A stretch of 64,000 nt of DNA. Origin: Heptranchias perlo. Lineage: Eukaryota. The stretch covers positions 13,826,001 to 13,890,000 of the forward strand of contig NC_090359.1 of NCBI RefSeq assembly GCF_035084215.1, in the 5' to 3' direction. This document shows positions 21,368-57,165 of this stretch, piece by piece (the stretch's first letter is position 1; every line of letters begins with the position of its first letter). The position numbers and the translations under genes are program-made. Below the pieces are notes generated by a model, which was not told the origin of the DNA, did no database searches, and saw only the letters and a list, made by a program, of their open reading frames with translations.

Positions 21368-21534
21368 TTTTTTTTTTTTCTTTTTTTTTTGTTTTAGCAC
21401 TCTCCTCACAGGCCTCTCACTGGGAAGTTTTCTCTTTTTTTTTTGTTTTTGTGTATTAGGCCCCCCTTTTATAAGAAGGGGGGGGTGTGGGGTGTGCTTA
21501 AATACTAAAAACCAAATAAACCAAAACCAAGTGT

Positions 21535-24500
21535 TCAAATTAAAATTTTATTCTCCTCGTCCAGGATGCACTCCAGCCCCTGCGGTGCCCACCGGCCGCG
21601 GAAAGCCTCGAGCGTACCGGCAGACACCGCGTGCTCCATCTCCAGGGCCACCCGGGCGCGGAGCATTCCGCGGAATAGAGGCAGACAGGCCGAGCGACCG
21701 CCCCCACGGACCACGATCATCCTAGACCTGTGGATGGCCACCTTGGACAGGCCCAGGAGCAGGCCCGCGAGAACGTCCACCGACCTGCCCGCCCCCCTCC
21801 TCACCGGGCGGCCAAAGATCAGGAGCGTGGGACTGAAATGCAGCCAGAACTTGAGGAGCAGCCCCTTCAAATAGTGGAACAGGGGCTGCAGTCTCGCACA
21901 CCCAGTGTACAAATGAAAAACGGACTCCTCCAGGCCGCAGAAAATGCAAGCGGCCTGGGTGTCCGTAAAATGGCGTAAACGCCTGTTGCACGGGACTGCT
22001 CCGTGCAACACCCTCCACCCCAGATCCCCAAAGTAACACGGGAGGACCCCTGTATAGAGAGCCTCCCACTGGGGACCCCCGTCTCCGCCGGACGGCAGGA
22101 TGGTACGCCAGGGCGTGTCCGGGCGAGAGACGAGGGCGAGGAAGTGGATGGTGTGCAGGAGCAGCCCGTACAGGAAATCCCTCCGCGCGGTGTGAAACGG
22201 CACGGAGGGAATTTCCGAGAGACGGCTCAAGTTGTGAGGCGCGGCCCTCCGAGGGAGGTTCCGGGGTTTGGCGCCGAGGAGGAATTCCGTCCGAACGGGG
22301 GTCAGGTCGGACGGGATGGCTCCGCACGCCTGAGCCGCCTCCACACCCCGAGTGGAGTCAGGGCCGAGCGCCGATTTCAACGCCTGGATGGCGGCGGCCG
22401 CGTCCCCGGCACGCCACGAGGACATGCGAGCGGCGAGCGCCCACGGCTCGAGCCAACCCGACCTCCCGCCATCCAGGACGTCCCTGACTCTGGTTACCCG
22501 ACCGGCCACAGCCCTCCGCTCCGTCAGCCACGAGCGGCTGAAGCCGACATCGCGGAGGAACGGATTCCCGAGCAGCGGCTCCTGCAGGACGGCCGCTACT
22601 CCCGACGGGCGAGAGCTCCGGCTGGAGGCGACCATGGTCCAGACCCTGAGCAGATCCTGGTACAAGACAGGCAGCTCCTGCAAAGACGTGCGGCCGCCCA
22701 GCAGCGAGACGAACAGGAGCTGCGTGTCGTAGTTCAGGCCGTGCACCTGGCGGAAAAAATACGTCGCCAGCGCACGCCATCTAAGAGGGCGCTCCGCGTA
22801 CAGGTATCGCTGCAGCATCCGAAGGCGGAAAGTTGCCACCTGGGTGCGGACGCACACCAGCCCCTGACCGCCCTCCCTAAGCGGGAGACTCAGGACCGCG
22901 GCAGCGACCCAGTGCATCCCTTTGGCCCAGAAGTCGACGAACTTCCTCTGAATCTTGGCGACAAAATCAGGGGGGGGGGTCAAAGTGACCAACCGGTACC
23001 ACAACATGGCGGCCACCAGCTGGTTTATGACCAGCACTCGACCCCTGTAGGATAACACTCGGAGCAGTCCTGTCCAGCGCGCCAGGCGAGCGGTGACTTT
23101 GGCCTCCAGCTCTACCCAGTTCGCCGGCCAGGCTTCCTCGGCAGGGCCGAGGTAGACTCCCAGGTACCGGAGGTGCGTGGTACTCCAGGCGAAAGCCCTG
23201 AGCTCCTCCGGCATGGAGTCCACCCGCCACTGACCCACCAGGAGTCCGGAACATTTCTCCCAGTTGATCCTTGCGGAAGACGCGGCAGAGTAGACCTCTT
23301 GGCACTCGCGCATCCTCCGCAAGTCAAGGGGATCCGTGACCACGAGGAGCACGTCGTCGGCGTAAGCCCAAAGGACGACCTCCACGTCCGGCTCGCGCAG
23401 ATCCAGTCCCGACAACCTCTTGCGCAAGAGGCGCAGGAAAGGCTCCACGCAGACGGTGTATAATTGGCCGAACATGGGGCACCCCTGACGCACTCCTCTC
23501 CCGAAGCGAAGGGGCGCCGTCAAGGATCCGTTAACCTTAATCAGACACTCCGCGGCGGCGTACAGAAGTCGGATCCGGGCGACGAAATGCGACCCGAACC
23601 CGAAAGCGCGCAGAGTCCCGAATAGATACTCGTGATCCACCCTGTCGAACGCCTTCTCCTGATCTAAGGAAAGGAAGGCGACCGACAGACCAGCCCTCTG
23701 GGAATGGTGGATCAGGTCCCGGACCAGGTGGATGTTATCCTGGATCTTCCGGCCCGGGACCGTGTAGGACTGGTCGGGGTGGATCATGTGGGCCAGCACG
23801 GTGCCCAGGCGAGCAGACATCGCCCTGGCGAAGACCTTATAATCCGTGCTGAGGAGGGAGACCGGGCGCCAGTTTTTAAGGTTGCGGAGATCCCCCTTCT
23901 TAGGCAGCAGGACCATGACCGCCCTGCGCCACGAAAGGGGCATCTCCCCGGTTGCCAGACATTCCCCCAGGACCCGCGTGTAGTCGCCCCGCAGGACGTC
24001 CCAGAAGGCCCTGAGGAACTCCACGGTCAGCCCATCCAGCCCCGGGGATTTGCCCCTGGAGAGCTGGTGGAGGGCGCCGGTCAGCTCCGCCAAACTCAGC
24101 GGAGCGTCCATACTGTCGGCGTCCTCCGGGCCGACCTTCGGCAGGTCCTCCCACAAAACGCTGCGCGCCTCCTCGCTGGACGGATCCGGAGAGAACAGAG
24201 CCTCGTAGTAAGATCGAGCCCTGGCCCTGACTCCCTCCGGGTCCGAGACGAGGGACCCGTCGTCGGCCAGCAGCGTAAGGAGCTGCTTACGAGCCCCCCG
24301 CCGCTTTTCCAGCGAGTAGAAGAAGGGAGAGCCGCGGTCCAGGTCCCGCAGGAGCTGGAGCCGCGACCTCACGTACGCTCCTCGGGACCCGACCAGTTGC
24401 AGGTCCCTCAGAGCGTCCTTCTTCTCTAATTACACCTGCCGCAGGGCCGGATCCTCGGCGGCCTGACCGAGACGGGACTCCAGGCCAAGCACCTCCTGCT

Positions 24501-25428
24501 CCAACCGCCTGACCTCGGACTCCCGCCTCTTGGTCGACCCCCTCGCGTACTCTTGACAGAAGAGGCAGACGTGAGCCTTGCCCACGTCCCACCATAGCCT
24601 CAAGGAGGAGAAGCCTCCCCGCTTCCCTCTCCAGTCGCTCCAGAACAGACGGAACGAGTCCCGGAACCGCGCGTCCTCCAGCAGCCGGTTGTTAAAGTGC
24701 CAGTGCGCGGACCCCGACCGGGCGCGGAGCAGAGCGAGCTCCATCCACACCAGTTGGTGGTCCGAGCACGACACCGGCCGGATGGAGGCCGACGGGACGC
24801 AGGAGGCGTACGCCCGCGAAACGTACAGGCGGTCGATTCTGGTGCTCCCTCCTGCAGCCCTCACAAAGGTGAACTGGCCGGAGTCGGGATGGAGATTCCG
24901 CCAGACGTCCACCAAGTCGAAGGACCCGACCAGGTCCCTCAACTTCCCCGTCGCCGTTCGGCAACGCGCGGGACCGGAGCGGTCCCTCGCCTCGAGGGTG
25001 CGGTTAAAATCCTCCCCGAGGATAATGCACTCGACGGAGTTCAGGTAAGTGGACACTTCTTCAAAGAAACTCACTTGCTCGGCTCCGGACCAGGGGGCGT
25101 ACACGTTCACCAGGTGAAGCGGCACGTCCCCGTGGCGAAGGGCTACGTGGAGCAAGCGGCCCGGCACCGGCTCCTTGACCCCCAAGATCTCCGGCTGAAA
25201 AGTCGGGGCCAACAAGATGGCCACCCCGCTCGAAACGCTGGCGAGGTGACTCAAGTAGACCCCCCCTCCCCATTCCAGGATCCACGGGGCCTCGTCTCCC
25301 GGAACGGTGTGGGTTTCCTGCAGAAAGCACACCGCATACTTCCCGTCCCGAAGGACCGAGAACTTGTCAAATCTACGGCGGGCGTCTCTGCCGCCGTTGA
25401 TGTTGAGGCTGGCTATGGTTATCTCCAT
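21535..25428 (-). pseudogene. Tx1 copy 1 ORF2 (endonuclease-reverse transcriptase) interrupted by an in-frame TAA
   Basis: ORFs 24430-25446 (SLNING, LQETH, RID, SDH) and 21535-24372 (KSPGLDG, RQGCP, YADD, CIFCG..H...C) are in the same frame. Confidence 0.92.
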
Positions 25429-56071: not shown

Positions 56072-56839
56072 GACCTAAAGAGCCACACCCACCCCAAGTC
56101 TCGGGCCTACTGATGAAATTAGGCCTTTTTAAAAGAAGCCCTGAGGAAACCTCTCTCCCCGAATCCCAGAGCTTGGTTGGGAGAGGGGCCCCTTTGCTGG
56201 TTTTATTTCCCCCCAGAATATCCGGGAGAGCAAGAGAAGGTGGGAGGGATTAATGGTGGAATGGGAAGGAGGGAGTCTGCAGGGGTAGGCTGCTGCAGAA
56301 GTGGGTGGAAGTGGGGCGGGGTTGCACCTTAAAAGGTGGATCATCTTCTGTCTGTCTTCCAGTGGGCAGGGGGAGGAGATGTCTTCCCCGAGACAGCTGG
56401 AGCTGCCTAGGCTCAGTCCTCCAAAGATTGAAAAAGTAATTTCACCCAGGCAGCTCCAGCTGTCCTGGGCCAGACACTTGGGGGAACCCCCTGTCCTCTA
56501 AGGTCTTCTTCCTCCCCCTACCTTCAGCCGACGCACCTCACTGCACCGACCTCCTCTTCCTCCCTCTGTTCGGTTTCGCAAACCAGCAGCAGCAGCAGCA
56601 CAACCCCTCCCGGCTGCTGTTTGGTAGTATTCTTCTTCTCCCTCCCTCCTTGTTGATGGTGGTTTCTCCTTCTCCTTCTCCTTCTCCTTCTTCTCCTCCT
56701 CCTTCTCCTCCTCCTCCTTGACTCAGAGGGACCCGGGCAAGGGCCTGCTCTCTCTGCTCTCTCTGCTCTCCACTCCACTCAGTGGCAGTTCAGCCACAAT
56801 CAGCTCCAATGCCGAGCTGGTGTGTCTCAAAGACAACCC

Positions 56840-57165
56840 AACAGAGATGTGATCAGATTCCGTCTGAGGAAAGTCAAAGAAACCAACAGCAATGGCATCA
56901 CAGAATAATTCTCCAATCCCACCTGTATTCCAAAGCTCTGATTGGTTCTGGGAATCACACCCCACCTTCTGTCCTTTGTTAATTGGTGCCTGGATTCATG
57001 GACGATTCCTGAGTGGTTGTCAGGGATTGTCAATCATCATTGGTGATCTCATACCCTGTGTAAATGCAGGCTGTCCCAGTAGTATAAATACAAGAGCTTG
57101 TGAGGGAAGAGGTTAGGTTGTTTTTGCAGTTTGAAGTGTGATTGTGGTTAATAGTAAAAGTTAAA
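56840..57165 (+). promoter_or_regulatory. Proximal promoter/5'UTR of ferritin copy B
   Basis: Inverted CCAAT boxes, TATAAATA at 57083-57090 and ATG at 57166. Confidence 0.8.

Follow-up and report, generated by a model that had tools for sequence, protein, structure and literature searches.

The window analysed here is a 64,000-nucleotide stretch of Heptranchias perlo DNA (C38:13826001-13890000; C-numbers denote contigs of the 3.25-Gb assembly). Based on a self-comparison of the window and the listing of its open reading frames (ORFs), we identified four minus-strand copies of a long interspersed nuclear element (LINE) within positions 21368-57165. These copies, E1 to E4, are each about 6.8 kb long and pairwise 95.4-97.4% identical. 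As had been claimed in the sequence-only reading of this DNA, the four full-length copies stand head-to-head with ferritin genes: E2 and E4 directly adjoin ferritin A and ferritin B, respectively, and a promoter piece separates E1 and E3 from the copy that comes after each of them. Together with the genome-wide data described below, this makes us highly confident that the family has landed repeatedly at the promoters of ferritin and ZP3-like genes. In the following, a promoter piece at the 5' end of a copy is termed a head, and negative positions refer to the ferritin ATG. The copies and their heads are:

21368-28168, minus strand: Tx1 copy E1; ORF1 and ORF2 both broken; composite tail
21396-21427, minus strand: tag of 32 bp between T runs in the E1 tail; matches the 5' end of element subfamily C
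28169-28378, plus strand: type-A head at the 5' end of E1; ferritin promoter from -253 to about -44, ending at the E2 nick site
28379-35157, minus strand: Tx1 copy E2; ORF1 (32437-34479) intact, ORF2 with one stop
35158-35410, plus strand: ferritin A promoter and 5' untranslated region (UTR), a type-A head; four inverted CCAAT boxes, TATA altered at 35325-35330
42814-42833, plus strand: left copy of a 20-bp target-site duplication (site S1, a recurrent nick site in ferritin upstream DNA)
42834-49654, minus strand: Tx1 copy E3; ORF1 (46879-48921) intact, ORF2 frameshifted
49655-49854 (visible part), plus strand: type-B head; ferritin B promoter piece from -326
49996-56839, minus strand: Tx1 copy E4, youngest 3' subtype; ORF1 54029-56071, ORF2 50094-53999
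56840-57165, plus strand: ferritin B promoter and 5' UTR, a type-B head; CCAAT boxes, TATA box intact

In the first pair, E1 is thus followed by the ferritin promoter from -253 to about -44, then by E2, and then by ferritin A with its promoter from -253. The second pair begins with the 20-bp duplication, continues with E3 and E4, each with promoter DNA from -326 behind it, and ends with ferritin B. The type-A head at 28169-28378 is 99% identical to the ferritin A promoter, and further copies of the S1 duplication are found at 49655-49674 and at 56840-56859, the latter at -326 from the ATG of ferritin B. S1 was also struck in other promoter types elsewhere in the genome. The 5' junction of E1 and E2 lies at -253 and the 3' junction of E2 at -44 to -41, where a T run makes the exact base ambiguous; the 3' junction of E4 lies inside a stretch of N in the window and was assigned no position. 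E1 and E2 are nearly identical over their 5' 2 kb and differ by 3-4% in the 3' part. Among the window copies, only E4 has retained both ORFs intact (ORF1 with 680 aa, ORF2 with 1301 aa). The 32-bp tag in the E1 tail appears to be a 3' transduction from a source within an array.

When E4 was compared by blastn with positions 1-21400, 35515-42800, and 57270-64000, no further element piece was detected at E<1e-3. The view that ferritin introns are free of copies holds for the window but not for the genome, as one insertion lies in a ferritin intron 1 at C38:9344701.

Identity of the element

In Pfam, the 1301-residue ORF2 product of E4 shows an N-terminal APE endonuclease (Exo_endo_phos), a reverse transcriptase (RVT_1), and a weak C-terminal zf-RVT domain. 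Its best named match is ORF2 of Xenopus Tx1 (YTX2_XENLA), with 50% identity over 1299 aligned residues and 54% over residues 1-800, and the same protein search returned a 71% partial match in a stingray protein. ORF1 has a weak zinc knuckle (zf-CCHC, E=0.007, below the curated cut-off). The element also shares with the Tx1 clade the poly(A) tail and the target-site duplication, which was called at 35 of 50 dispersed copies. Judged by its best named protein match, it is a member of the Tx1 clade of retrotransposons that lack long terminal repeats (non-LTR). Neither an R2-like restriction endonuclease nor a 28S site was found: the endonuclease is of the APE type, and no ribosomal DNA flank occurs among the ends examined. 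ORF2 is retained at its length of 1301 aa in 9 of 21 whole copies examined.

Genome-wide distribution

A 28-base pattern of the 3' end has 244 exact matches in the genome, and the 100 listed first are spread over C1-C25. We sampled 50 dispersed copies from C1-C9, and their flanks were unrelated in all 50 cases. Forty-three of these copies are 5'-truncated, ending within the fetched stretch, and their target-site duplications are short (7-22 bp after trimming T). The nick context was derived from 31 sites, as four of the 35 duplication calls were dropped as doubtful (L106, L109, L274, L284), at least two of which are probably real; L120 and L271 represent one duplicated event. These sites show a weak C|T pattern alone. 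As the dispersed flanks are unrelated and the nick context is this weak, there is no strict target sequence, and a target-specific family in the sense of Keno or Mutsu is not supported.

To describe the young insertions, we used the complete lists of 3' ends of two young 3' subtypes (69 and 47 ends), which involve no selection by flank. The intervals C38 9.1-17.8 Mb and C43 4.26-4.64 Mb, which together comprise 9.1 Mb or 0.28% of the genome, hold 59 of these 116 ends (34/69 and 25/47 by subtype), compared with 0.3 ends expected in all. Most listed matches to ferritin exon 1 and ZP3 exon 1 fall in the same intervals. By coordinates, 38 of the 59 ends are at most 800 bp away from a ferritin or ZP3 start or at most 500 bp away from a head, compared with 4% of random positions. 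Nineteen of the other 21 ends are placed by their sequence (one by position) at a ferritin or ZP3 5' region or at another copy; ends that are far by coordinates are mostly outer ends of full-length copies, displaced 7 kb from the gene. In total, 57 of the 59 ends are at gene 5' regions or at another copy, and two are unexplained. The youngest subtype, which is 0-0.9% diverged at its 3' end, is the most cluster-enriched one. These numbers bear out an enrichment at ferritin and ZP 5' regions, for which the sequence-only reading had proposed a test.

One sequence type thus makes up more than 20% of the flanks, which is the rule for target preference in the available text of PMC4494074. At the same time, and unlike Keno, Mutsu, Dewa, Kibi, Koshi, and Tx1L, the family does not have a single conserved target at the 3' junctions of the majority of its copies.

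Some dispersed insertions have peculiarities of their own. The same position in one satellite family was struck three times (L017, L024, and L099 on C22, C17, and C1). At C14:36.187-36.196 Mb (L004-L007, L029), a cluster of truncated copies includes the 3' end as a 956-bp tandem repeat, and its tails carry ferritin, ZP3, and third-unit tags. The insertion L120/L271 is present twice, 67 kb apart (C3:140.68 and 140.75 Mb), and its tail joins a third-unit tag to a ZP3-promoter tag.

Independent insertions at the promoters

We examined the junctions of 118 ends, chosen mostly via full-length copies, by automatic clustering according to nick site and tail. About 80 distinct junctions were obtained, of which about 38 are in ferritin, 16 in or at other copies, 9 in the third unit (see below) or in ZP3 heads, 8 in ZP3, and 9 elsewhere. 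Thirteen of the roughly 38 ferritin junctions have a native flank with no element head. Ferritin promoters were nicked recurrently at about -308, -174, and -41, and further nick sites lie at about -333, -302, -163, -140, -116, -66, and -51. Sense-orientation insertions into ferritin and the one in intron 1 were also seen, and ferritin, ZP3, and third-unit targets were all struck in both orientations. Ferritin is therefore not the sole target. Repeated independent insertion into ferritin promoters, on the other hand, is well documented by the distinct combinations of junction and tail, and these some 38 junctions exclude a single amplified ancestral insertion. The sequence-only reading had itself named descent from one ancestor, or unrelated and dispersed flanks, as findings that would count against it; the former does not apply to the young family, but the latter is what the 50 sampled flanks showed.

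For older sequences, the situation is different. One old truncated insertion is common to 19 of 30 ferritin loci, so that the explanation by a single ancestral insertion, which was rejected for the young family, is true for the old D-type fragment. In the D-type ferritins (L070-L090), this old insertion is a 3' fragment of 167 bp that spans -296 to -463. Near -800, most of them have another fragment in the opposite orientation, and a young copy has recombined into one of these loci (L077). Duplication is also at work among the other copies, as several tandem copies have one common tail.

Promoter heads, arrays, and tails

The 5' ends were analyzed with a pattern of the ORF1 start, which has 126 matches in the genome, 100 of them listed, and the flank classes were tallied by hand. 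Among the matches listed, C38 has 78 of the ORF1-bearing copies and C43 has 9, and there are none on C1-C12, the contigs that hold at least 65 of the 3' ends among the matches listed. The 5' neighbour of the 100 listed copies is a ferritin promoter in 43 cases, a ZP3 promoter in 37, a third duplicated unit in 10, the tail of another copy in 8, and unrelated DNA in 2, which means that 98 of 100 listed copies (of 126) have one of the four recurrent neighbours. ZP3 heads are antisense, or sense just past the ZP3 start codon, and the ferritin head types A, B, and E are antisense.

In 27 of 30 loci, the junction at -253 matches in every letter, and one and the same A head continues into four or more ferritin gene types, the switch points being located within the promoter. 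For these reasons, -253 must be regarded as an inherited head and not as an independent landing site, and so must the -326 junction. Of the three junction positions that had been taken as independent, the coordinates -326, -253, and about -41 are correct, but two of them are not independent landing sites. The TATA box is altered in 13 of the 20 type-A heads that reach it, by 4-5 different changes, and window ferritin A is among them; the remaining 180 bases of the heads vary little. In native type-A promoters, TATA is intact in 3/3 cases. One TATA variant also occurs in a native C-type promoter, and the TATA pattern is a post hoc observation. The alterations would fit a selection against forward transcription into the next copy.

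At three loci (L171/L172, L199, L203), the same ZP3 promoter carries two copies back to back, with one copy in each direction. The third target is a duplicated unit of at least 10 kb, found mostly near contig ends (C13, C16, C32, C37, C49, C424, C446; loci L121-L129, L144, L147-L150, L210, L212, L268-L270). It contains a GC-rich promoter-like stretch, a 150-bp piece in common with ZP3 intron 1, and, 5 kb away, an AT-rich tandem repeat. No Rfam match to this unit was found, and no ORF was recognisable besides CR1 fragments.

Arrays of 2-5 copies are common. In the arrays on C13, C32, C37, and C424, a shared junction and tail are found at the outermost position and private ones further inside, from which it follows that newer copies land in the head of an older copy and that the head is restored behind them. 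Array growth by insertion into the poly(A) tail of an older copy was disfavoured, as it is the outermost junction that is shared and older in these four arrays, and as nicks at the same sites are also seen in native promoters. In six adjacent pairs with the same head, including both window pairs, the copies diverge by 3.3-6.3% in the 3'-most 600 bases and by 0-1.9% in the 5'-most bin. This gradient fits an origin of the 3' part from new RNA and of the 5' part by copying from the neighbour.

The tails consist of T runs and short tags from ferritin promoters, a ZP3-like intron, the third unit, or element heads, with up to three tags from the -41 site within one tail. By BLAST, 21 of the 50 dispersed copies were found to have tail tags from ferritin, ZP3, the third unit, or heads. 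The simplest reading of such composite tails would be serial 3' transduction from array sources.

Mechanism and alternatives

A fuller model, which we hold to be somewhat more probable than all other explanations combined, is that of an active Tx1-clade LINE that parasitizes the promoters of amplified egg-type genes. The dispersed 5'-truncated copies arise by ordinary target-primed insertion, in which sequence preference is slight, and a third to half of the young insertions fall within a few hundred bases of ferritin or ZP3 5' ends or at the 5' end of a copy, at many nick positions and in both orientations. Full-length copies end in a captured promoter head that is inherited along subfamilies. 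For these, the 3' end could be primed in the promoter and the cDNA finished by pairing with a homologous head or with the DNA of a neighbouring copy, so that the promoter would be rebuilt behind the new copy, apparent duplications of 80 to several hundred bp would result, and arrays would grow toward the gene. Array copies would then be the sources, transcribed in oocytes from the borrowed promoter, and read-through would put promoter tags into the tails of the daughters; unequal crossing-over and segmental duplication would subsequently copy and shuffle the arrays. The choice of promoters would most likely result from their extreme oocyte activity and accessibility, possibly aided by RNA-DNA homology or a protein tether. 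Judging from the shark and zebrafish literature, such oocyte activity is plausible: in the available text on Greenland and white shark, hundreds of clustered ferritin copies are described as conserved and ovary-specific (bioRxiv 10.1101/2024.09.09.611499), and the accessible part of a study on zebrafish follicles reports abundant zp3 and ferritin transcripts (PMC1488847).

Several observations weigh against this model or against parts of it. Of the other six adjacent pairs, three are reversed, with similar 3' and different 5' parts, and the remaining three are almost identical over their whole length. At C30:36.83 Mb (L146/L214), a full-length copy at an unrelated site has a 209-bp duplication and no homologous head, and therefore long duplications can arise without homology. 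Several arrays, including E1-E2, mix head types and have ferritin on one flank and ZP3 on the other, so that recombination between loci is needed, and such recombination or gene conversion could also produce the 3'/5' mosaic. CCAAT boxes are not enriched near the 31 dispersed sites (2.83 vs 2.78 per kb), and a simple NF-Y tether is thus not supported. The junction counts are approximate, as the clustering contains visible merging and labelling errors and the loci were reached mostly via full-length copies, and all genome counts come from one assembly. Four contig sets from one sample, guessed to be RNA, include ferritin joints that are spliced and cover the element thinly; the low-depth contigs (depth 11-28) that span the element 5' end, promoter B, and exon 1 are not evidence for the model.

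As segmental duplication evidently occurs, it was in principle conceivable that a few ancestral insertions were multiplied with the ferritin/ZP3 cluster and that there is no insertion preference. The junction between the window ZP3 remnant and E1 is indeed duplicated at C38:11.85 Mb, where the block of ZP3, element, and ferritin A recurs, several junctions recur with the same tail, and the old truncated insertion is common to 19 of 30 ferritin loci. However, this explanation is very improbable, as nick position, tail, and 3' subtype vary among the roughly 38 ferritin and at least 8 ZP3 junctions, distinct tails are found at more than 10 nick positions, and the youngest subtype is the one most enriched in the clusters. 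There is equally little reason to expect that the endonuclease strictly recognizes one sequence in the ferritin promoter, in the manner of Keno or Tx1L. The three recurrent ferritin sites and the close relationship with Xenopus Tx1, which is site-specific, would be in favour of this, but the three sites share nothing beyond the following T, more than 10 other positions are used, the ZP3 and third-unit sites are unrelated, and the dispersed sites have only C|T. Strict site specificity was rejected on the basis of the unrelated flanks, the more than 10 ferritin nick positions, and this weak nick context.

Two further explanations are closer to the data, and we nevertheless regard both as unlikely. 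The element could prefer the 5' end of existing copies, in which case ferritin and ZP3 promoters would be struck only as early-captured heads. This would agree with the frequent arrays and with the fact that 25 of the 38 ferritin-type junctions lie in a head that belongs to another copy and a further 16 junctions are in or at copies, but not with the native flanks without a head at 13 ferritin and 8 ZP3 junctions. It also leaves aside isolated 3' ends 120-790 bp upstream of ZP3 or ferritin starts, which are 24-92 kb away from any listed head, and older, 75-85% identical fragments upstream of D-type and A0-type ferritins and G-type ZP3. Alternatively, open oocyte promoters could be nicked merely because they are accessible, followed by staggered second-strand cuts and later gene conversion or unequal crossing-over, and homology would not assist integration; we give this possibility a small chance. 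The 209-bp duplication at C30, the weak nick consensus, and the frequent recombination proven by mixed-head arrays and identical-tail tandem copies are in line with it. On the other hand, there is no reason why conversion should place the younger 3' subtype on the side of the promoter, as found in the W3/W4, C13, C424, C725, C43, and C1048 pairs, the duplications at dispersed copies are short, and no other oocyte-active genes are evident among the 50 dispersed flanks, which are unannotated. Integration could also be guided by RNA homing: the 5' head and tail tags would pair with the matching promoter, a head swap would reprogram the target, each insertion would rebuild the promoter, TATA-dead heads would redirect transcription to the element, and recombination between copies would amplify and reshuffle the ferritin/ZP3 clusters. 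This whole chain of events is rather improbable. Coming back to the promoter-parasite model, the data suit a borrowed germline promoter at least as well as the safe harbour that had been suggested, and some insertions destroy the gene, as seen with the window ZP3.

Comparison with known elements

In its way of working, the window family resembles a combination of R2, the MAST2-driven SVA subfamily, and positional targeters such as TRE5, Ty3, and Tf1. Regional targeting near active promoters without a nick consensus is a property of Dictyostelium TRE5/TRE3, yeast Ty1/Ty3, and fission-yeast Tf1. Drosophila HeT-A forms head-to-tail arrays in which the promoter is provided by the neighbour and short tags are traces of previous rounds. 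Such positional targeters strike tRNA genes, Pol II promoters at large, or telomeres, and we know of none among TRE5/TRE3, Ty1/Ty3, Tf1, and HeT-A that is tied to particular amplified protein-coding families.

With Xenopus Tx1, Keno, Kibi, Koshi, and Tx1-Mar, as far as they are covered by the available text of PMC4494074, the window family has in common the two ORFs, the APE, reverse transcriptase, and zinc finger domains, the multicopy targets, and the tandem insertions. It differs from the Tx1/Keno type in that it targets 5' regions of protein-coding Pol II genes, in that its preference is regional and not for one sequence, and in its captured heads. In the accessible parts of three articles, the published targets of target-specific non-LTR elements are non-coding repeats (PMC4494074, PMC5035012, PMC4640811). 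R2 is co-transcribed from the promoter of its target, according to the available text of PMC12203849, and titles cited there indicate 5' integration aided by homologous recombination for R2Bm and R9, with very long target duplications. The use of a target promoter and homology at the 5' end, both presumed for the window family, would thus be common features, whereas R2 nicks at one fixed site with a restriction-like endonuclease and has a ribozyme, and the window family has an APE endonuclease, many nick sites, and a mostly antisense orientation to the host gene. An SVA subfamily driven by the MAST2 promoter and the SINEU-2 5' extensions were founded by 5' capture of a host promoter (PMC4494074, available text). 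Their daughters scatter, whereas the full-length daughters of the window family return to the captured promoter family, and several captures coexist.

No LINE family, of the Tx1 clade or otherwise, that resides at the promoters of ferritin or ZP genes was found in the literature, in a search that did not cover Repbase and most subscription journals. A LINE in the promoters of amplified egg genes extends the list of targets to protein-coding Pol II genes and would offer an answer to the question of how a LINE gains expression in the female germline, namely by carrying an oocyte promoter and returning to it. As the composite tails would record source loci over several rounds, source-daughter pedigrees are testable from sequence in related genomes, and the same is true for the mechanism at the 5' junction, which is the poorly understood half of target-primed integration, and for the role of the element in the ferritin and ZP3 expansions. 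Homology-assisted full-length integration by an APE-type element, if true, would be relevant to RNA-based insertion tools.

Genes and other features of the window

The genes of the window and the empty site are:

18904-21369, minus strand: remnant of a ZP3-like gene, interrupted at the exon 1 end by the E1 3' end
35411-40947, plus strand: ferritin A; ATG at 35411, 4 exons, intact ORF of 173 aa
57166-59897, plus strand: ferritin B; ATG at 57166, 4 exons, intact ORF of 173 aa; spliced joints in public contigs
61728-61747, plus strand: empty S1 site upstream of ferritin C
62115-63758, plus strand: ferritin C, exons 1-3; exon 4 outside the window

The empty site at ferritin C had been recognized correctly in the sequence-only reading. 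The ZP3-like remnant has a ZP-C domain (E=3e-12) and is without its promoter and most of exon 1, and paralogs show the full exon 1. Genome-wide, exon 1 has 120 matches for ferritin and 142 for ZP3 (100 of each among the matches listed). ZP3-like genes are hugely expanded and interleaved with ferritin at C38 9.1-17.8 Mb and C43 4.27-4.73 Mb, and C43 carries a regular ferritin array with a spacing of about 5 kb. A published account of a ZP3 expansion was not found in the literature searched, and the available text on the shark ferritin clusters (bioRxiv 10.1101/2024.09.09.611499) mentions neither a resident retrotransposon nor an interleaved ZP3 expansion. In four ferritin 5' regions, no Rfam match to an iron-responsive element was detected at E<=1.

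In ferritin A, the boundary of intron 2 and exon 3 is partly duplicated (39021-39275 and 40087-40345, 88% identical), which may have created a decoy exon. To the left of the window ZP3 gene, there are an ORF fragment that is CR1-like by appearance (969-1655), a 33-bp minisatellite (8209-8721, 15.6 copies), and an ATTG-rich microsatellite (14991-15099).

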